The notes below the pieces were generated by a model. It searched no databases. It saw only the letters and a program-made list of their open reading frames with translations, and had not been told where the DNA came from. Both the position numbers and the translations under genes were made by a program. Shown in pieces: positions 3,329-61,114 of a stretch of 61,346 bases of DNA. This DNA comes from Candidatus Jorgensenbacteria bacterium (lineage in GTDB: Bacteria > Patescibacteriota > Minisyncoccia > UBA6257 > GWB1-50-10). Every line of letters begins with the position of its first letter. Position 1 is the stretch's first letter. Where the stretch lies: the NCBI GenBank assembly GCA_043807585.1, contig JAZDFV010000003.1:1-61346 (forward strand). Direction: 5' to 3'.

Positions 3329-3493
3329 TTAGTCGACCGCTTTGTCGTGGTCGCCAGTGGAATGGTCGTTGTAGCTTGGTCCGTCGCCGTGGCAAGATAA
3401 CCTTTTCTGGTTAATCTCGGCCCTCACGCGACTGATGATTTTGCTACCGATACCGACCTTCCGCATCGAGTTGCTACTGGAGGTTTGTTCCAT
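3329..3493 (-). CDS. 54-aa putative RiPP precursor, core SCHGDGPSYNDHSTGDHDKAVD
   Basis: Promoter, AAAGGGAG RBS and downstream hairpin (3283-3307); first gene of the operon with HExxH and rSAM. Confidence 0.75.
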   Translation of the reverse strand: MEQTSSSNSMRKVGIGSKIISRVRAEINQKRLSCHGDGPSYNDHSTGDHDKAVD

Positions 3494-27414: not shown

Positions 27415-29142
27415 ATGACAGACCAGGAATTGCTTGATGCCCTTGTGAAGAAAGGACTCCTAGACCAGGTGTCCGCGGCCGGCGTTGCCCGCGATGCCGG
27501 CCTCACCGGTCGCTCGGCCGAGGACGTGCTATACGAGCGCCGCGCCGTGGAAGAGCCGTCGCTCGCCGCGGCGAAGAGCGAACTCCTTGGGATCCCATAC
27601 CGCCCAACGGAGGTGGAGAAGATCCCCGATGAGCTTTTGAAGGTAATTCCCCGCGAGACCTCGGTGACATACCGCGTGATGCCACTATCGCGCGAGCGCA
27701 ACATGCTCGTTGTAGGGATGTTGCGCCCGGATGACGAGCGCGCCCAGGAGGCACTCCGCTTCATCGCGAAGCGGGAGGGCGTAAGTTTGGGTATATACCT
27801 CATAACTCCCTCGGACTTGAAAGCAATGTGGCGCCGCTACGCGCCGTACCGGAGCGAGGTGGAGACGGCCGCAAAGGAAGTCGGCAAACTTCCCGGAGGA
27901 GAAAGCGAGATCACCTCACTCGAGGAGGGAGGGAGCGTCGAGGATGCGCCTATCATCAAGATCGTGGCGGCCACCCTCCGGCAAGCGGTAGAGGGTGGAG
28001 CGTCCGACATCCACATTGAGCCACAGCGCTCGCGCCTCCGCATCCGCTTCCGGGTGGATGGCATGCTCCAGGAAGTTGCTTCGCTCCCCGTGGCGCTTAC
28101 CCAGCAGATACTCTCCCGCGTGAAGGTGCTCGCGCGCCTCAAGCTCGATGAGAACCGCATCCCGCAGGACGGGCGGTTCCGGACCTTGATCTTCGGGCGC
28201 GACATCGATTTCCGGGTAGCCACGTTCCCTACTCCCTCCGGGGAAAAGGTGGCGCTCCGCGTCTTGGACCCAACAGTTGGCTTGAAGGGCTTGGGGGAAC
28301 TTGGGCTTGCCCCTTACCACGAAGCGGTTTTGAAGGAGGCCATTGAACGGCCCTTCGGCATGATCCTGATAAGCGGCCCAACCGGCTCCGGAAAGACCAC
28401 CACTCTCTACGGCATCATGCGCCAGCTCGCGAAGGAAACCGTGAACGCGGTGAGCTTGGAGGACCCGGTTGAGTACTTCATGGAGGGGGTTAATCAGTCG
28501 CAGGTGAAGCCGGAGATCGGCTACACGTTCGCCTCGGGCCTGCGGCAGATCCTCCGCCAGGACCCTGACGTGATCATGGTGGGTGAGATCCGGGACAGCG
28601 AGACCGCGGATCTCGCGGTGAACGCGGCCTTGACGGGTCACGTCCTCCTCTCCACGCTCCATACCAACAACTCGGTGGGAGTGATACCACGACTGGTTGA
28701 TCTCGGTGTGCCGCCGTTCCTCCTCTCTTCTGCCATGAATCTCATGTTGGCACAGCGCCTCGTGCTCCGCCTCTGTCCAGAATGCAGGGTGAAGGGGGAG
28801 GTAGCGCGGGATGCCGAGCGCATTATCAGCGAAGCGCTCGAAACACTCCCGCCGTCCCTGAAAGCGGGGGTGAAAGCGAAACCGCCGTACACGGTCTTTC
28901 GCGCGAAGCCAAAAGCGGACTGTCCCGTCTGCAGGGGAAAAGGCACCGCCGGCCGTGTAGCTCTCTTTGAGCTGTTTCAGATGACTCGGACGCTTGCCGA
29001 CCTCATCACGGGGGGATTTACTGAAGGGAAGCTCATGGACGAAGCAAAGCGGCAGGGAATGGTGACGCTCCGCGCGGATGGGATTTTGAAGGCCTTGAAG
29101 GGCGACGTGGGGATAGAAGAAGTCATCCAGGAAACAACCTAA
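27415..29142 (+). CDS. pilB: Pilus assembly ATPase PilB/GspE
   Basis: GASDIHIEP, GPTGSGKTTT, LRQDPDVIMVGEIRD. Confidence 0.95.
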   Translation: MTDQELLDALVKKGLLDQVSAAGVARDAGLTGRSAEDVLYERRAVEEPSLAAAKSELLGIPYRPTEVEKIPDELLKVIPRETSVTYRVMPLSRERNMLVVGMLRPDDERAQEALRFIAKREGVSLGIYLITPSDLKAMWRRYAPYRSEVETAAKEVGKLPGGESEITSLEEGGSVEDAPIIKIVAATLRQAVEGGASDIHIEPQRSRLRIRFRVDGMLQEVASLPVALTQQILSRVKVLARLKLDENRIPQDGRFRTLIFGRDIDFRVATFPTPSGEKVALRVLDPTVGLKGLGELGLAPYHEAVLKEAIERPFGMILISGPTGSGKTTTLYGIMRQLAKETVNAVSLEDPVEYFMEGVNQSQVKPEIGYTFASGLRQILRQDPDVIMVGEIRDSETADLAVNAALTGHVLLSTLHTNNSVGVIPRLVDLGVPPFLLSSAMNLMLAQRLVLRLCPECRVKGEVARDAERIISEALETLPPSLKAGVKAKPPYTVFRAKPKADCPVCRGKGTAGRVALFELFQMTRTLADLITGGFTEGKLMDEAKRQGMVTLRADGILKALKGDVGIEEVIQETT

Positions 29143-29254
29143 AAGGCTTTCTACAAATTTTCGAACGGTAGCGAAGAAAATTTGTTAAGAAAACTGTTTA
29201 AATTTATGGTAAAATTTATATCGTCAGGAACTCATAAATTTAAATAAATTTGGC

Positions 29255-30325
29255 ATGGACTACGCGCAAAAACTGAATGAGCTTCTCTTGACTACCGCGC
29301 GCGAGAACGCGTCCGACCTCCACATCGCGGTGGGTCGGCGCCCCACCATCCGTATTGACAGCGTTTTGATCCCCCTCGCGAAGGAGCCCATCCTCACCAA
29401 GGAGGACGCCGAGGGACTCGTGGGCGCGCTCCTCTCAGTGGAACAAAAGGATCGGTTCCTGAAACTGAAACAGGTGGATTTTTCGTTCAATTTTGAGGAC
29501 AAGGCGCGGTTCCGGGTGAACGTGTTCTTCCAGCGGGGTTTTATGGCGGCGGCACTGCGCCTTATCCCCGCCCAGATCCGCACTATGGAGGAGCTGAATC
29601 TTCCTCCAATCCTTCACGACTTCGCCAAGATGAACCAGGGGTTCGTCCTCGTCGTGGGGCCGGCGGGGCACGGGAAATCCACCACACTTGCGGCCGTTCT
29701 GGATGAGATAAATCACAACCGCACCGAGCACATCATTACCGTGGAAGATCCCATCGAGTACCTCTTCGCACAGGACCGCTGCATCATCTCACAGCGTGAG
29801 GTGGGGCAGGACACAACCTCGTTCCATGAGGCGCTCCGCGCGGTGCTCCGGCAGGACCCCGACGTCATCATGATCGGCGAGATGCGCGACCCTGAAACCA
29901 TCGCGACCGCGATGACCGCGGCGGAGACCGGTCACATTGTGTTCTCAACCCTCCACACGAACTCCGCTTCGCAGACCGTCGACCGCATCATTGACAGCTT
30001 CCCGCCCGAGCAGCAGGGGCAGGTGGTCTCCCAGCTCGCCTCCACGCTCGTGGCTATCATCTCGGAGCGCCTCGTGCCGCGGGTTGGCGGGGGGCGCGTG
30101 CCGGCGATGGAGATAATGCTCACCAACTCCGCCATACGGAACCTAATTCGCGAGCGGAAGATCTACCAAATCGACCTCGTTATTGAGACCTCCGTGCAGG
30201 AGGGGATGATATCCCTGAACCGTTCGCTTGTGAATCTCCTGAAAAGCAAAGAAATTTCGCTCGAGCAGGCCGAGAGTTACTCGCTCAACCCATCGGAGCT
30301 GAGGATATTGTTGGAGAGAACGTAA
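29255..30325 (+). CDS. pilT: Pilus retraction ATPase PilT
   Basis: ASDLHI, GPAGHGKSTT, AIRNLIRE. Confidence 0.95.
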   Translation: MDYAQKLNELLLTTARENASDLHIAVGRRPTIRIDSVLIPLAKEPILTKEDAEGLVGALLSVEQKDRFLKLKQVDFSFNFEDKARFRVNVFFQRGFMAAALRLIPAQIRTMEELNLPPILHDFAKMNQGFVLVVGPAGHGKSTTLAAVLDEINHNRTEHIITVEDPIEYLFAQDRCIISQREVGQDTTSFHEALRAVLRQDPDVIMIGEMRDPETIATAMTAAETGHIVFSTLHTNSASQTVDRIIDSFPPEQQGQVVSQLASTLVAIISERLVPRVGGGRVPAMEIMLTNSAIRNLIRERKIYQIDLVIETSVQEGMISLNRSLVNLLKSKEISLEQAESYSLNPSELRILLERT

Positions 30326-30327
30326 CG

Positions 30328-30765
30328 CGATGCGAATATACGAATGCATACGAATACTACGAATAAAATCATCTACCCAGAGCTATCGTATGCGCTTACT
30401 GGTGTTTCTTTCAGCGTTCATAACCAACTCGGGCGCTTTTCGCGTGAGCGGCAATACGGCGACGCAGTTGAAGCGAAATTAAAGGAGCTAAAAATACCTT
30501 ACGAAAGAGAGTACAATGTGAAAGGCTCAGGTAACATTATTGATTTTCTCGTAGATAGCAAAATTGTTATGGAACTAAAAGCGAAACCAGTTGTTTCAAG
30601 AGATGATTATTATCAGGTTCAACGATATCTTCAAACGCTTAATTTGAAATTGGGTATCATTGTCAACTTCCAGAACCGGTACATAAAACCCACCCGAGTT
30701 GTCAGGATAGATACCCCTTCAAAAGCGAGATTCGTATAATTCGTTCAATTCGTATATTCGCATCG
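30328..30765. mobile_element. GxxExxY gene bounded by perfect 18-bp inverted repeats
   Basis: cgatgcgaatatacgaat (30328-30345) and attcgtatattcgcatcg (30748-30765). Confidence 0.65.
30344..30739 (+). CDS. GxxExxY protein (PD-(D/E)XK nuclease-like)
   Basis: VHNQLGRFSRERQY, IDFLVD..IVMELK, Q..RYL. Confidence 0.9.
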   Translation: MHTNTTNKIIYPELSYALTGVSFSVHNQLGRFSRERQYGDAVEAKLKELKIPYEREYNVKGSGNIIDFLVDSKIVMELKAKPVVSRDDYYQVQRYLQTLNLKLGIIVNFQNRYIKPTRVVRIDTPSKARFV

Positions 30766-30769
30766 AGAT

Positions 30770-31975
30770 ATGAAGTTTAACTACAAAGCGCGCACGAAGG
30801 AGGGGGAGCTCCAGGTGGGGAACGTTGAGGCCTCGGCCCGCGAGGCGGCGGTTTCCGTGCTCTTGGGGCACGGGCTCTTCGTGCTCTCGGTGGAGCCGGT
30901 GAAGGAGACAAAGTGGTACAGCCGTCTCACCGACTTCTTCGAGCGGGTGAAGGTCACCGACCTCATGGTTTTCACGCGCCAGTTCGCCACCCTCCTCGCC
31001 TCGCAGGTACCTCTGGGGGATAGCTTGCGGAGTTTGTACGCGCAAACCTCAAAACCGGTTCTGAAGGAGGTGCTCGCGGAGGTGGCTTCCGATATTGAAT
31101 CCGGGTTTTCGCTCTCGCAGGCACTCGGGCGCCACCCCGGAGTGTTCTCCGAGTTCTATGTGAACATGGTAAGGTCGGCGGAGGTGACAGGCCGCCTCTC
31201 GGAGGTGCTGGACTTTCTCGCCGATTATCTTGAGCGGCAGTCGATGCTGGTCTCGAAGGTGAGGAACGCGCTTGTCTACCCCGTGTTCGTTGTGGGCCTC
31301 TTCTTCGTAGTGGTCATCATTATGGTGACCATGGTTATTCCACAGATCGCCCCTATCTTTGCCGAGTCGAATGTGCAGCTTCCCGCCCTGACCAGGTTCC
31401 TGGTTTCTTTCGGCACTTTCGTGGTGGGCTGGTGGTGGGCTCTCATAATCGTGTTCACCATGCTCGTCCTCCTAGTGATCAACTATGTGCAGACCGATGA
31501 AGGCAAGGCGGTGTTCAACGAGATCAGCTTACGGCTCCCCTTGATCGGCAAGCTTCTTCAGCGCTCGTACATTGCCCGTTTCGCGGAGTCGGCGAAGGTT
31601 CTGATCCAAGGCGGCCTCACCATTCCGCAGGCAATCGAGATCGCCTCACACACCATCGGCAACTACGTGTACCGTGACGTGCTCCACGAGGCGGCGCAGG
31701 CGGTGCGAAAAGGGCTCCTGCTCTCGCAGGCCCTCAAGGATGCGCCCTACTTCCCGCCGCTCGTCTCCCAGCTCATCGCGGTGGGTGAATCCACCGGCCG
31801 CCTTGAGGTGCTCTTGGGGAAGATCTCCTCGTTCTATGAGCGGCAGGTGGAAGATATCGTGGGGAATCTCGTTGAGCTCATCCAGCCGGCGCTCCTCGTG
31901 GTGATCGGTATCATGGTGGCGGGGCTCTTCGCCTCCATCCTCCTCCCGCTCTACAACCTCACGAAGGTATTCTAA
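30770..31975 (+). CDS. pilC: Platform protein PilC/GspF
   Basis: FTRQFATLL, AEVTGRL, GESTGRL, LIQP. Confidence 0.95.
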   Translation: MKFNYKARTKEGELQVGNVEASAREAAVSVLLGHGLFVLSVEPVKETKWYSRLTDFFERVKVTDLMVFTRQFATLLASQVPLGDSLRSLYAQTSKPVLKEVLAEVASDIESGFSLSQALGRHPGVFSEFYVNMVRSAEVTGRLSEVLDFLADYLERQSMLVSKVRNALVYPVFVVGLFFVVVIIMVTMVIPQIAPIFAESNVQLPALTRFLVSFGTFVVGWWWALIIVFTMLVLLVINYVQTDEGKAVFNEISLRLPLIGKLLQRSYIARFAESAKVLIQGGLTIPQAIEIASHTIGNYVYRDVLHEAAQAVRKGLLLSQALKDAPYFPPLVSQLIAVGESTGRLEVLLGKISSFYERQVEDIVGNLVELIQPALLVVIGIMVAGLFASILLPLYNLTKVF

Positions 31976-32240
31976 AGGGCTTTCTACGAATTTTCGAGCC
32001 GAAGGAGATGAAAATTTGTCGAGAAAACCTTTACCCCGTTAGATAGCGGCAATCATATGAAATTTCAATACAAAAATAGAGTGAGGTATAATAATCATCG
32101 AACTGCACTCCGAGAGGGCTTGCCCGCATCTAACGGGGTGGACATTCGGCCGAGCTCAGTCGAGGCCCTCAATTTTACCGCGCCCGACTTGCCCGAGAGC
32201 AACCCGGGCGGGCGGGTAGTCACTCGCTCCGCTCGTGAAT
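31976..32240. mobile_element. Composite MITE-like element, second copy at 45019-45240
   Basis: accccgttagat...atctaacggggt inner IR; ggacattcggcYgagctcagtcga tail; extensive similarity between copies. Confidence 0.7.
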
Positions 32241-32316
32241 AAAATTGGCATTTGCTATAATAAAGCGGATATTCGAAAGGTCGATGGAATAGCCAATAAC
32301 AAATAACCAATAACAA

Positions 32317-32745
32317 ATGACTAGTAAAAGAAGCGGTTTCACGCTGATCGAGATGCTCGTGGTGGTCGCCATCATCGGGCTCCTTGCGTCAGTGGTAGTG
32401 GTGGGGGTGGGGGGTGCGCGCCAGCGGGCGCGGGATGCGAAGCGCATAGCGGATATCAGGCAGATCCAGAACATGCTTGAGAACTACTACTCGACAAACA
32501 ACGCATACCCCACTGCCTTGAACCTTTTACCTAGCGTGCCTACCGATCCCTTGGATGCCACCAAGTCCTACGGCTACTCTGGGAGCGCCCAGACCTACAT
32601 ACTGGGGACCTGCCTGGAAAACGATCGCCCTGCCGGAACAGGGAGCGTCGCCGAGATGCTTGTTCTCACCAACCTCACCACCAACTGCACCAACTGCAAC
32701 CAAGCCGCGCCCGGAAATCTCAAGGTCTACTGCGTTAAGAGCTAA
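32317..32745 (+). CDS. Type IV pilin (major pilin/GspG-like)
   Basis: GFTLIEMLVVVAIIGLL. Confidence 0.9.
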   Translation: MTSKRSGFTLIEMLVVVAIIGLLASVVVVGVGGARQRARDAKRIADIRQIQNMLENYYSTNNAYPTALNLLPSVPTDPLDATKSYGYSGSAQTYILGTCLENDRPAGTGSVAEMLVLTNLTTNCTNCNQAAPGNLKVYCVKS

Positions 32746-32758
32746 TCCGCTCCACTCA

Positions 32759-33346
32759 ATGTCTACCCTTAAACGCGCTAACGCGGTTTTATCCAGCACC
32801 ACTTTTGAGCACGTCAGCAAAAGTGGTGCGAAGAAGGGTTTATCCAGCACCACCTTTGAGCACGTCAGCAAAAGTGGTGCTGGGTTTACCCTCATCCTTC
32901 GACGAACTCGGGATAAGCGTGGTTTTACGCTTATCGAGATGCTTATTGTGGTAGCCATCATCGGGCTCCTCTCGTCGGTGATCCTCGTGGGGCTTGGTGA
33001 TGTGCGCAAGGAAGCGCGGGACACGCGCCGCATTTCTGACATCCGACAGATGCAGAACCAGCTCGAGATCTACTATTCCGAACACCAGAGCTACCCTCCC
33101 GACGTCTACGAACAGCTTCAGGGGACTCCGTTCGACCCGGTGGCGGATCCAACGACTGGGGAACTGCACAAGTACGTCTACGAACGCCTCTCGCAGAACA
33201 GCTACCTCCTCGGGACATGCCTCGAGGGCGCGCGCCCCACGGGGATAAGCCACATCAGCCAGAATTTCCGGAACGACATCACGAACTACGGCGTCGGCTG
33301 CAATTGCGATGAGGCCGCGCAGCAGGCATACTGTGTGAAGAGTTGA
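32759..33346 (+). CDS. Type IV pilin paralog with repeat-expanded leader
   Basis: GFTLIEMLIVVAIIGLL; leader contains 2x41-bp hairpin repeat. Confidence 0.85.
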   Translation: MSTLKRANAVLSSTTFEHVSKSGAKKGLSSTTFEHVSKSGAGFTLILRRTRDKRGFTLIEMLIVVAIIGLLSSVILVGLGDVRKEARDTRRISDIRQMQNQLEIYYSEHQSYPPDVYEQLQGTPFDPVADPTTGELHKYVYERLSQNSYLLGTCLEGARPTGISHISQNFRNDITNYGVGCNCDEAAQQAYCVKS

Positions 33347-33526
33347 TAGCGCGATGCGAATATACCTGCCCGCCATAGCCTTTATCTTTGTTTTCTCTCC
33401 AGACATAGCTTTCTTATAATTGATGTTTAGACATAAATCATCGGATAGGCGTTGGCAGGCGGGCGAATTCGTGCGAATGATACGAATAATGCGAATGTTG
33501 GGAACGCCGGTTGCCGGTTAATTGTC

Positions 33527-34429
33527 ATGGAAGCGGTGTTTTACGCGACACTTTTTATACTCGGGCTCGCCACGGGGAGTTTCCTGAACGTTCTCACGCT
33601 CCGGTACCAGCCGGAGCGTTCCGTGTTCAGCCGAAAGGCGCTCGGCGGTCGTTCGCATTGTCCGCACTGCAGGAAAACGCTTACCGCGATCGAGCTCATT
33701 CCGCTCGTGAGTTTTCTAATCCAGCGTGGGCGTTGCTCCGCCTGTGGCGAACAGCTCTCACTCCAGTACCCGCTCGTGGAACTGGTGAGCGGCGCGGTGT
33801 GGGTGATGGTGCCGCTCTCGTTGAGTTTTTTTTACAACATCGCCCCAGTCGCCTTCGCTTCCCTCGCGGCGCCGCTATGGTTCTACGGACTCGCACTTGT
33901 GTGGATCGTTGCCTTTCTCACATGGCTCGCGATCTTCGTGATCGATATGCGGCACTATCTGATCCCCAATGAGCTGAATATACTCCTCGCTGTTCTCGGG
34001 GTGGCTGCGATGCTTCTCCTCTCCGCGCACCACGGGGCGCTCCCGGTGTTCCGTGATTCGTTCCTGCGGCACTACGCGCTTCTCGTCTCGCCCACCTTCG
34101 GGGTGTGGGCAGGCCATCTCTTGGGCGCGGCGGCCGGCGGGCTCATCTTCGGTTTCCTGGTGTTTCTGGGACGGGGGCGGGCGATGGGGGTGGGGGACGT
34201 GAAGCTCGCTATTGCCTCCGGGATCCTCTTGGGGTGGCCCGATATTCTCCTCGCCGCGTTCCTCGCATTCATTGTGGGCGGGGTGTGGGGGGTGGTACTC
34301 GTGCTCGCGAAAGAAAAAAAGTTCAGTGACCGTGTTCCCTTCGCGCCTTTCTTTGTGATCGGCGCGGCTATCACGGTTTTCGGCGGGTACCACCTCCTCC
34401 GCCTCTACTTCTCTCTCTTCGGGCTCTGA
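33527..34429 (+). CDS. pilD: Prepilin peptidase
   Basis: GSFLNV, RSHCPHC, GRCSAC, YPLVE, MGVGDVKL, PFAPF. Confidence 0.93.
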   Translation: MEAVFYATLFILGLATGSFLNVLTLRYQPERSVFSRKALGGRSHCPHCRKTLTAIELIPLVSFLIQRGRCSACGEQLSLQYPLVELVSGAVWVMVPLSLSFFYNIAPVAFASLAAPLWFYGLALVWIVAFLTWLAIFVIDMRHYLIPNELNILLAVLGVAAMLLLSAHHGALPVFRDSFLRHYALLVSPTFGVWAGHLLGAAAGGLIFGFLVFLGRGRAMGVGDVKLAIASGILLGWPDILLAAFLAFIVGGVWGVVLVLAKEKKFSDRVPFAPFFVIGAAITVFGGYHLLRLYFSLFGL

Positions 34430-58924: not shown

Positions 58925-60179
58925 GAATAGAAACGAACCATTTTACTTCGGTGCCGCGACGAGCGCCCACCAAGTGGAGGGCGGGAACCGGAACGACTGG
59001 ACGGAGTGGGAAATTGAAACTGCAAAGAGCAAGGCGCAAATGGCGAAGGGTAATCCGCCGACTGGCGGATGGCCGGACTATATATTGGAAAATTATCCGA
59101 GCCCTCTTGACGAAGAAAATTATATTTCGGGGCGTGCGGCGGACCATTTCAACCGCTACGAGGAGGATTTTGATATTGCGAAATCGCTCGGCCACAACGC
59201 CCACCGTTTCTCCATCGAGTGGTCGCGGGTGGAGCCGGAGGAAGGGAAGTTTGACGAGAGCGCCCTCGCGCACTACCGCAACGTGGTGAAAGCGCTCCGC
59301 GCGCGGGGAATGGAACCGTTCGTCTCCCTCTCCCACTGGACGATTCCGCGCTGGTTCCGTGACGCGGGCGGGTGGCGCAGTCCGCGCGCCCCGGAGCGCT
59401 TCGCGCGGTACGCGGAAACGGCGGCGCGCGTGCTCGGGGACGACGTGCGTTTCTGGATCACCCTGAACGAGCCGGAGCTCAATGCGGCATTCGGGTATTT
59501 CCTCGGAAAGTGGCCGCCGAACGTCCGCTCGCCGCTGGCCTATTGGCGCGTGCTCCACCGGCTTGTGGACGGTCACCGCGCCGCCTACGCGGTCATCAAG
59601 CGCTTGGCTCCGCAGGCGCAGGTCGGCATCGCGAAACACAATTCATACTTTGAAGCGGTGGGGTTGAATCCGTGGAATCGGGCGCTCCAGTCGCTCGCGC
59701 AGTGGTGGTGGAATTCGTACTTCCTGGACAGCATCGCGGACGTGCAGGACTTCATCGGACTCAACTACTACTTCCACAACCGCATCAACTGGTGGTTCAA
59801 CCGCAACGAGAACAGAACGGTGTCGGATGTTGGATGGGAGCTGTATCCGGAGGGCATCTACCACGTCGTGAAGGACCTCGCGCGCTACCGGAAACCGATC
59901 TACATCACCGAGAACGGCGTGGCCGATGCGCGCGACGTTCTCCGAGCCGCATTCATCCGCGAAACGTTCCGGTGGCTCGCGCTCACGAAAGAGGAAGGGG
60001 TGGATATCCGCGGCTATCTCCACTGGTCGCTCATCGACAATTTTGAGTGGGCGGACGGTTTCTGGCCGCGCTTTGGGCTCGTGGAGGTGGACTACCGTAC
60101 GCAGGCGCGCCGCGTGCGTCCGAGCGCGCTCGTCTACCGCGACCTCATCCGAGAATGGCACCGGGAGCATTTCGATTGA
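58923..60179 (+). CDS. Glycoside hydrolase family 1 (beta-glucosidase)
   Basis: ATSAHQVEG, RFSIEWSR, TLNEP, ITENG, WSLIDNFEW. Confidence 0.95.
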   Translation: MNRNEPFYFGAATSAHQVEGGNRNDWTEWEIETAKSKAQMAKGNPPTGGWPDYILENYPSPLDEENYISGRAADHFNRYEEDFDIAKSLGHNAHRFSIEWSRVEPEEGKFDESALAHYRNVVKALRARGMEPFVSLSHWTIPRWFRDAGGWRSPRAPERFARYAETAARVLGDDVRFWITLNEPELNAAFGYFLGKWPPNVRSPLAYWRVLHRLVDGHRAAYAVIKRLAPQAQVGIAKHNSYFEAVGLNPWNRALQSLAQWWWNSYFLDSIADVQDFIGLNYYFHNRINWWFNRNENRTVSDVGWELYPEGIYHVVKDLARYRKPIYITENGVADARDVLRAAFIRETFRWLALTKEEGVDIRGYLHWSLIDNFEWADGFWPRFGLVEVDYRTQARRVRPSALVYRDLIREWHREHFD

Positions 60180-60223
60180 TTTATTCGCATCATTCGCATG
60201 ATTCGTATATTCGCATCGCGTTT

Positions 60224-61114
60224 ATGAATTGGTTTTCCATCGCAACCGTTGCATACCTCCTGAACGCTGGCGCGGCGCTCGTGGATAAGGTGCTCCTGCG
60301 GCGCCTCGTCCCTCACCCCGCGGTGTACGCATTCTTCGTGAGTGTGCTGGGCGGGGTCGTGGTGCTCGCGGCGCCGTTCGTGCTCCAGGCGGCTGCCGCA
60401 AATATTATTCTCGCGAGCTTGGGCTCGGGTGTTCTCTTTACGGCCGCGCTCTTTCTCTTCTATACCGCGCTCCGGAAGGGGGAAACATTGCGCGTGGTGC
60501 CGCTCGTGGGGAGCGCGACGCCCGTTTTCGTGCTCGCCCTCGCGTGGATGATGCTCGGGGAAACGCTCACTGCGGCGCAGCTCGTCGGGCTCGCGCTTGT
60601 GGTCTTGGGGACTTTCTTCCTCGCACGGGAGGGGAGCGGGGGGCGGATGACGGCGCGCCTTGTCATGGAGGGCAGTGTCGCGGCGCTCCTCTTTGCCGCC
60701 TCGCACGTCGCCGCCAAGTTCGTGTATCTCCATCACCCGTTCCTCTCCGGGCTCGTATGGCGGGGGATCGGCGGGATCCTCGGGGCGCTCCTCCTTCTTG
60801 CATTCTCCTCCAATCGCAGGAATATCCGTGAGGCGCTTTCACACCCCGTGCTCTCTACAGGCGCGCTGTTCTTTGTGGGCCAGGCGCTCGCGGCGGTGAG
60901 TTTTTTCCTCGTGAACTACGCATTCTCGCTCGGGCCCGTGACGCTCGTGAACGCATTGACCGGCATCCAATACGCGTTCCTCTTCGCGGCGGTGTATACG
61001 CTCTCGCGGTTCTTCCCGCAGGTACTCCACGAATCCCATACGCCCCGGACGGTTGCGGCAAAAGTGGTCGGCATCCTCCTCGTGAGCGGCGGAATCGCCG
61101 CGCTGTTCATATAG
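60224..61114 (+). CDS. EamA/DMT family transporter
   Basis: About ten hydrophobic segments in two repeats. Confidence 0.8.
   Translation: MNWFSIATVAYLLNAGAALVDKVLLRRLVPHPAVYAFFVSVLGGVVVLAAPFVLQAAAANIILASLGSGVLFTAALFLFYTALRKGETLRVVPLVGSATPVFVLALAWMMLGETLTAAQLVGLALVVLGTFFLAREGSGGRMTARLVMEGSVAALLFAASHVAAKFVYLHHPFLSGLVWRGIGGILGALLLLAFSSNRRNIREALSHPVLSTGALFFVGQALAAVSFFLVNYAFSLGPVTLVNALTGIQYAFLFAAVYTLSRFFPQVLHESHTPRTVAAKVVGILLVSGGIAALFI

Follow-up and report, generated by a model that had tools for sequence, protein, structure and literature searches.

The stretch analysed here, hereafter the window, comprises 61,346 nt of contig JAZDFV010000003.1 (GenBank assembly GCA_043807585.1, positions 1 to 61,346, forward strand) from a Candidatus Jorgensenbacteria bacterium of the Patescibacteriota. 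Between its pilT and pilC genes, the window carries a small cassette, in which a gene for a GxxExxY family nuclease is enclosed by two inverted arms built of short iterated units. The cassette and its host genes are arranged as follows.

29255-30325, plus strand: pilT, the upstream host gene, with a stop codon abutting the left arm
30326-30367, plus strand: left arm, consisting of the outer terminus CGATGC and then four [AG]CGAAT units at 8-10 nt spacing
30344-30739, plus strand: GxxExxY / PDDEXK_3 nuclease gene, 131 aa, assigned by profile matches
30728-30768, minus strand: right arm, the left arm reverse-complemented, four units
30770-31975, plus strand: pilC, the downstream host gene, with its start codon 5 nt past the right arm

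The open reading frame (ORF) at 30344-30739 is the sole gene between pilT and pilC, and both the ORF coordinates and the profile matches agree with the sequence-only reading of this DNA, which had placed the gene alone at that junction. The same reading had the gene bounded by perfect 18-bp inverted repeats. The 18-mer CGATGCGAATATACGAAT is indeed exact at 30328-30345 (+), 30748-30765 (-), and 60201-60218 (-), against a chance expectation of 0.05 for the window, and the perfect 18-nt inverted repeat bracketing the ORF can be extended to 23 nt at 91%. The borders of the gene have to be corrected: the left arm starts 0-3 nt past the pilT stop codon and contains the start codon of the ORF (30344; …CGAATATACGA-ATG-CAT-ACG-AAT-ACT-ACG-AAT…), and the stop codon is at the inner edge of the right arm. 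The units of the two arms make up arrays at 30332-30364 (+, four units) and 30730-30761 (-, four units). In total, seven [AG]CGAAT arrays (at least three units, 7-12 nt spacing) were found in the window versus 0.04 in shuffles; further arrays lie at 33463-33496, 45722-45757/45770-45806, and 60175-60214.

The G+C content at third codon positions (GC3) drops from 0.79 in pilT to 0.40 in the cassette gene and is back at 0.82 in pilC, with the step located exactly at the cassette borders. A co-conversion tract in pilT was considered and rejected, the GC3 of the pilT 3' end (0.70) being inside the gene's own range. Neither a sigma-70-type promoter nor an intrinsic terminator was predicted on the plus strand in or beside the window cassette; a TATAAT hexamer in the right arm has no -35 partner. 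In an Rfam 15 search of positions 29000-34000, the arms matched no family, and two weak hairpin-type matches fell elsewhere.

Besides the cassette, the window contains the following gene-less copies and related arrays.

60178-60222, minus strand: solo arm without a gene, 22 nt equal to the cassette left terminus and then three more units
33350-33364, plus strand: outer end (15 nt) of a solo left arm, directly past the stop codon of a pseudopilin gene
33365-33463, no strand: AT-rich insert of 99 nt splitting this solo arm, with GC-rich imperfect inverted ends CCTGCCCGCC / GGCAGGCGGG
33464-33496, plus strand: continuation of the split solo left arm, four units, from the array search
45722-45806, plus strand: degenerate gene-less element, left units followed by right units, in frame inside pheT
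32292-32318, plus strand: weak CCAAT/ACAAAT array of uncertain membership, ending at a pilin ATG

All three gene-less copies named in the sequence-only reading were recovered. The exact 18-mer at 60201-60218 is part of the solo arm 60178-60222, which fills the 47 nt separating a stop codon at 60175-60177 from the ATG that follows at 60225. The copy at 33350, described as split by another element, runs for 15 nt, is interrupted by the 99-nt insert, and resumes at 33464; the insert is a different small element. A related palindrome of 20 nt, CCTGCCTGCCGGCAGGCAGG, was observed inside the right arm of an unrelated cassette (L051, ~3395-3415), and the insert and the palindrome may represent a second small element landing in arms. 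The degenerate copy in pheT, with its unit arrays at 45722-45806, corresponds to 27 extra in-frame residues in the B3/4 domain compared with Escherichia coli PheT, where residues 275 and 276 are adjacent; the residues flanking the insert are nearly adjacent in the Staphylococcus enzyme too. The hairpin of this element has a folding energy of -27.8 kcal/mol (z -2.8).

The window protein matched PF13366 (PDDEXK_3) with 67.7 bits (curated cut-off 22) and TIGR04256 (GxxExxY) with 62.2 bits (curated cut-off 35). Its catalytic set, E35, D67, E77-x-K79, and Q91-x-x-x-Y95, corresponds to the ExxY helix, the D…ExK, and the QxxxY motif of RecB-type nucleases. Across 30 aligned homologues, E35, Y38, D67, K79, Q91, and Y95 were invariant and E77 was at least 90% conserved; the same active-site columns were invariant across seven distant members. 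Homologues reached 66-69% identity, and all of them come from Patescibacteria metagenome bins. The AlphaFold (AF2) model, with a pLDDT of 87.6, has the expected alpha-beta-beta-beta-alpha-beta core, and its best Foldseek matches were Cas4 (4ic1, 4r5q), LHK-exo (3syy), and lambda exonuclease (E 5e-4 to 6e-2, TM ~0.5); I-Bth0305I was a weak match (rank 44, E 0.46). Judging from the model and the motifs, the enzyme looks intact and belongs to the RecB/Cas4-like branch of the PD-(D/E)XK nucleases. Searches of PDB sequences with the protein query and with the profile gave no significant match, the PADLOC defence models gave weak Cas4-type similarity at most (E 1e-3 to 5e-3), and the matches among profile families were PF13366 and weak nuclease families, with no Y1 (HUH) transposase match. 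The family is given as 'function unknown' (PMC3424549), and a literature search on GxxExxY / PF13366 returned no paper on function or flanking repeats. Profile scores, the Cas4-like model fold, and the published annotation are thus in line with the earlier statement that GxxExxY proteins are PD-(D/E)XK-like and have no assigned function. The N-terminal sequence MHTNxTN (MHTNTTN in the window) is conserved among homologues, yet disordered in the model. It is the translation of ATG-CAT-ACG-AAT-nnn-ACG-AAT, that is, of arm units, and the conservation there is therefore that of arm DNA.

To survey relatives, one genome per species was scanned, which yielded 372 stretches encoding homologues; the best 80 Patescibacteria loci (50-69% identity) were examined and, together with the window, make up the 81 loci for which arms were counted. 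A left array was present in 76/81 loci, a right array in 71/81, and both in 67/81. The 66 cassettes with both strict termini measured 436-648 nt (median 458). The consensus of their 132 arms, GATaCnAATATACgAATgnATaCtAATnAtaCnAAT, shares the terminus of the window arm; most arms have 4-5 units at 8-10 nt spacing, and the units are ACTAAT, ACGAAT, ACAAAT, and ACCAAT. The local inverted-repeat score between flanks had a median of 22 for GxxExxY genes, whereas neighbouring genes, with the cassette removed, had a median of 7 and a maximum of 11. These counts extend the repeats first noticed at a single gene to the flanks of many GxxExxY genes. Three loci (L026 3941-4000, L059 3938-4000, and L047 3902-4000) have a doubled left arm, in which one outer terminus follows another, and their elements are 500-545 nt long. 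In another locus (L066 4406-4695), the GxxExxY gene is directly followed by 290 nt of ATT[AT]GTAT-type units, 32 in tandem, which look like an expanded arm.

In the 1.02 Mb of locus DNA, 84 convergent terminus pairs were found. All 65 pairs spaced 401-600 nt enclose a GxxExxY gene and have no other content. Seventeen pairs of up to 160 nt hold no gene, one pair of 243 nt is empty, and one spans the locus with the 32-unit tandem array. The long forms code for a 125-135-aa nuclease alone; neither other cargo nor a transposase (DDE, serine, tyrosine, or HUH) was detected between the arms in these gene-selected loci. Short and long forms share terminal inverted repeats, as miniature inverted-repeat elements do with an autonomous insertion sequence. 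Moreover, the 57 gene-less flank termini were more similar to the resident gene-bearing arms (0.663 identity) than to those of other loci (0.579; p=2e-8). The nearest relative of the window (L011, pilT 88% identical) has five gene-less hairpins of ~95 nt at successive pil-operon junctions in addition to a gene-bearing cassette at pilT|pilC. The folds of gene-less hairpins reached -47.1 kcal/mol (z -9.5) and -34.8 kcal/mol (z -4.9). No strict terminus was found in 394 kb of metagenome pilT loci, and a scan of viral contigs for the terminus pattern gave eight isolated 18-mers with no arrays and no gene, which were taken as chance.

Distant GxxExxY genes (25-60% identity) were collected by tblastn of plasmid/chromid records and by profile search and form a small sample of 14 loci, five of which are given below.

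Bacteroides: radA / gene / FAD-dependent protein, 30-nt inverted repeat TTCACCACAGAGGACGCAGAGGAC…
Bernardetia: ade / gene / mannose-1-phosphate guanylyltransferase, 28 nt of CACAGAGA units
Sphingomonas parapaucimobilis: fabD / gene / fabG, 25-nt repeat TTCACGCGAAGGCGCGAGG…
Cyanobacterium (L183): gene between two flavodiiron protein genes, 49-nt repeat of CGCAAAGGT units, z 25
L185: gene after a nitroreductase gene, 49 nt of CAAATC units, z 25

The distant arms are unrelated in sequence and have a common design with ~9-nt units; they were found in five other phyla, including Bacteroidota, Cyanobacteria, Alphaproteobacteria, and Gemmatimonadota. Across the sequences compared, the arm sequence changes with the protein lineage and the architecture is kept. 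The fabD-fabG spacer, occupied in S. parapaucimobilis, is empty in S. paeninsulae. The Bacteroides protein (L178-L182) was present in 3763 collection blocks, with the radA/FAD-dependent protein context in 24/24 contigs examined; across this genus, the cassette is fixed and has a domesticated look. The arms of Bacteroidota and Sphingomonas (L171, L175, L178, L192, and L195) share an outer TTCAC…GTGAA end and differ in their units, which hints at common descent of the arm termini across phyla. Two genes from the GxxExxY cassette of L185, in a protein-coding operon, lies a PF05635 '23S_rRNA_IVP' gene (389-775) with inverted ACGATACG arrays of its own on either side (inverted-repeat score 19.5), which suggests a second family of small genes sharing the cassette design.

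The cassettes are placed tightly between genes. A same-strand ORF of at least 100 aa ends -8 to +15 nt from the left terminus in 56/66 cassettes (median gap 4 nt), and a same-strand ORF starts -8 to +20 nt from the right terminus in 57/66 (median gap 6 nt). In the subtype with the repeat GTATCGAT…ATCGATAC, the stop codon is touched or overlapped by the repeat, with the start codon 0-3 nt further on. Altogether, 43-46 neighbour contexts were counted among 62-64 loci, the recurrent sites being pilT|pilC (7 loci), a second gene pair (6), and two transketolase halves (4). Cassettes at pilT|pilC are as alike as random pairs (0.61 vs 0.61), and their nearest relatives lie in other contexts. Between the window and L011, identity was 0.88 for pilT, 0.71 for pilC, and 0.60 for the cassette; between L007 and L049, the values were 0.57, 0.35, and 0.72, respectively. 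The cassette GC3 was below that of the host in 6/6 pilT|pilC loci compared. In 25 metagenome pilT loci, the pilT-pilC spacer was mostly 0-20 nt (e.g., 6, 6, 2, 4, and 1 nt, or overlapping codons), so most relatives have no insert at this junction; one of these loci (L087) has a GxxExxY cassette with variant arms there. The spacer of L086 (3277-3411) consists of ~12 ATTCGTA units without a gene, a gene-less occupant of the junction used by the window cassette. Public sequencing runs, which hold 5% of the window's words, contained conserved pilT motifs and many left-arm matches and no empty or occupied joints of this strain, and an exact-protein look-up of the window pilC returned no record.

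With 43-46 contexts, empty pilT-pilC junctions, and a cassette identity uncoupled from that of the host, the gene is not syntenically fixed, a finding on which the mobility proposed in the sequence-only reading depended. Contexts, identity, and GC3 together indicate, at the level of sequence comparison, that foreign cassettes have entered repeatedly and precisely, instead of descending vertically. The sharp GC3 borders, the uncoupled identity, and the varied contexts argue against entry by recombination with co-converted flanks. These results bear on a possible free-standing homing endonuclease, which would cut the empty junction and have its gene copied in by repair from the occupied allele. 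PD-(D/E)XK homing endonucleases exist (I-Ssp6803I), the same junctions are used in diverged hosts (pilT|pilC, the transketolase halves, and a third pair with 7, 4, and 6 loci), and the diversity of cassette lineages at pilT|pilC implies more than one entry. However, the sharp GC3 change at the borders comes with no co-converted flank, the contexts number at least 43, and terminal inverted arrays and gene-less derivatives are foreign to homing endonuclease genes, so this explanation is considered highly improbable.

In another explanation, the gene is a passenger in a miniature inverted-repeat element moved in trans by an unseen transposase (a mobile insertion cassette), or it is an ordinary host gene of vertical descent, with arms that serve the host as regulatory palindromes. 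This view fits the exact proteins, each of which keeps to a single site in many samples, and the Bacteroides copy, whose place between radA and the FAD-dependent protein gene is fixed. It also fits the lack of a consistent target-site duplication and of a known transposase fold in the cassettes, and the other genes bracketed by palindromes in densely colonised genomes. Nevertheless, it is judged improbable: 65/65 long arm pairs hold the GxxExxY gene alone, with no transposase in 1.02 Mb; different arm sequences accompany different GxxExxY lineages in six phyla; neighbouring genes have no flanking inverted repeats once the cassette is removed; and the composition is foreign, with an identity incongruent with the host. 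The Y1_Tnp gene near one locus has different hairpins. This IS200/RAYT-type gene, near the locus of protein P0014, was rejected as a mobiliser, since its hairpins ggggtgaaactcccaac and cgcagcaagctgcgg are unrelated to the arms. In two loci with the same GxxExxY protein (L206 3340-3528 and L212 2206-2396), a Y1_Tnp gene lies by a polysaccharide synthase gene and differs in orientation and length.

The strong folding of the gene-less elements (-47.1 and -34.8 kcal/mol, see above) raises the question of a role at the RNA level, in which the two arms pair within the operon transcript, as do the stems around 23S rRNA intervening sequences, and the resulting stem is processed (e.g., by RNase III) or keeps stop and start codons close and so limits polarity; the nuclease would then not be the mobility enzyme. 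The cassettes are co-oriented within operons, with stop and start codons a few nucleotides from the arm ends and no promoter or terminator of their own; the PF05635 gene near a GxxExxY cassette also has inverted ACGATACG arrays; and the stems of Correia elements have been reported as RNase III targets (PMC2229807). On the other hand, such a role leaves the spread to at least 43 contexts and the multiplying gene-less copies unexplained. The solo arms at 60178-60222 and 33350-33496 are unable to form the stem, and the region 60170-60230 folds no better than shuffles (z 0.02). Moreover, the active site is conserved, and therefore the enzyme has a job. As a full account, an RNA-level role is thus thought rather unlikely; it is compatible with a nuclease-repeat partnership as an extra layer and not as a replacement, and processing or cistron coupling by the arm stem may coexist with that partnership.

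The cassettes resemble several known systems in part. The sequence-only reading had proposed an analogue of the RAYT/REPIN systems, and much of the likeness holds. RAYTs are single-copy genes, copies within a genome are distinct, and their closest relatives are in other genomes (PMC3116915). As in REPIN/RAYT systems (PMC3116915), a low-copy enzyme gene is bracketed by associated repeats and gene-less inverted hairpin doublets are dispersed in intergenic space; same-genome copies are distinct, the repeat type co-varies with the enzyme lineage, and the gene-bearing copy seldom moves. The part that does not hold is the enzyme, which here is PD-(D/E)XK, RecB/Cas4-like (PF13366), and not the HUH Y1 transposase (PF01797) of a RAYT. 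In addition, the arms consist here of 4-5 units 8-10 nt apart and there of one short GC-rich palindrome, and the Patescibacteria gene, unlike that of a RAYT, lies inside the palindrome, with its start codon in one arm and its stop codon in the other.

Correia/NEMIS and Rickettsia palindromic elements (PMC2229807) are similar in size (~70-110 nt), terminal inverted repeats, long stem-loops, and their location in transcribed intergenic regions, and the in-frame copy in pheT parallels the Rickettsia palindromic elements inside conserved genes. In contrast to all of these, the sole coding partner here is a nuclease of 131 aa, no TA or other target duplication was consistently seen, and the stop-start placement is very tight. 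The 23S rRNA intervening sequences with a PF05635 ORF likewise enclose a small ORF in complementary arms, but the host site here is a protein-coding operon, not rRNA, and the protein family is another one. With a different enzyme family and no target duplication seen, the cassette is not a conventional insertion sequence. Small nucleases with a restriction-enzyme fold are tied to mobile DNA in homing endonuclease genes and in Tn7 (TnsA); homing endonuclease genes recur between conserved genes, and the Tn7 ends carry several repeated binding sites. Unlike Tn7, the cassette has no DDE partner (TnsB), and because of its terminal arrays, gene-less copies, and sharp borders, it is not a typical homing endonuclease gene.

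The window probably holds one gene-bearing and several gene-less members of a selfish cassette family, with a nuclease-repeat partnership analogous to RAYT/REPIN. What the sequences show is the anatomy of the cassette, an association of gene and arms throughout the family, polymorphic insertion, a foreign composition, and arms that co-vary with the protein lineage. Since the cassette has no predicted promoter or terminator and is wedged between co-oriented genes, it would probably be expressed by read-through from the host operon. The surviving insertions would be those that keep the neighbouring cistrons close, unless the insertion step itself prefers such junctions. Deletion of the ORF would leave an arms-only hairpin of ~70-110 nt, and such hairpins would build up at other gene junctions and occasionally in frame inside genes. 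The nuclease itself would recognise the iterated units in the arms around its gene; with a unit spacing of about one helical turn, several subunits could bind along one DNA face. The enzyme might cut at or near the termini, or at a hairpin or cruciform formed by the arms, and would move or maintain gene-bearing and gene-less copies in trans, as has been proposed for RAYT and REPINs.

Several points weigh against such a partnership. The binding of the arms by the protein is putative, and cleavage and the route of insertion are likewise conjectural. A hydrolytic nuclease alone is unable to rejoin DNA, and host functions or another partner would therefore be needed; these loci were selected by their nuclease gene, and the genomes may hold a different autonomous partner of the arms elsewhere. 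No consistent target-site duplication (TA or longer) was found in the 66 cassette flanks, the L011 elements, or the Sphingomonas occupied/empty pair, in which the hosts are too diverged for exact insertion points. The exact proteins P0041, P0014, and P0129 are each confined to one context across many samples and contigs, so gene-bearing copies move rarely. Two copies within one genome are 59-71% identical, unlike those of an actively transposing insertion sequence; the nearest neighbours of same-genome copies lie in other genomes and other contexts. Among the 14 distant loci, two have no flanking repeat, and in Gemmatirosa, L189, L192, L195, Prevotella, and a fusobacterium, a complete palindrome or a long direct repeat stands on either side of the gene.

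Repeats of other kinds were also observed in the window. The pilB-pilT spacer (29144-29200) and the pilC-pilin spacer (31976-32035) share an opening motif of ~60 nt, a(a/g)ggctttctac(a/g)aattttcga…gaaaatttgt…agaaaac, a hairpin directly past the stop codon and unrelated to the cgaat arms. A similar hairpin occurs in the pilT-pilC spacer of L085. This hairpin may be a terminator or a second repeat family. Between two pilin-like genes (32745-32900), the frame-independent peptide LSSTTFEHVSKSGA occurs twice, and weak hairpin-type Rfam matches fall at 32789-32888; this repeat is tandem or palindromic and of another kind.

Beyond the window, it is conceivable, though on balance doubtful, that GxxExxY proteins in general (TIGR04256/PF13366, thousands of members) are the enzymes of an unrecognised class of mobile or self-maintaining cassettes present across many phyla. 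In such a class, a solitary PD-(D/E)XK enzyme would recognise the ~9-nt unit arrays of the inverted arms around its gene and drive the spread of gene-less hairpins into operon junctions. The PF05635 'intervening sequence' proteins may form a parallel system. The system is small, consisting of 131 residues and two arms of ~40 nt, and its tight stop-start placement suggests either an unusual target choice or an unusual way to avoid harm to host operons. If the general proposal is true, the cassettes would represent a route of DNA mobility that uses no known transposase or recombinase family, and RAYT/REPIN, the known example of a repeat-enzyme partnership, would be joined by one based on a second class of enzyme. 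A large family annotated as 'function unknown' would receive its first functional context, and an explanation would be at hand for the conspicuous intergenic hairpins that Patescibacteria carry in their small genomes and that also occur in Bacteroidota, Cyanobacteria, and Proteobacteria.

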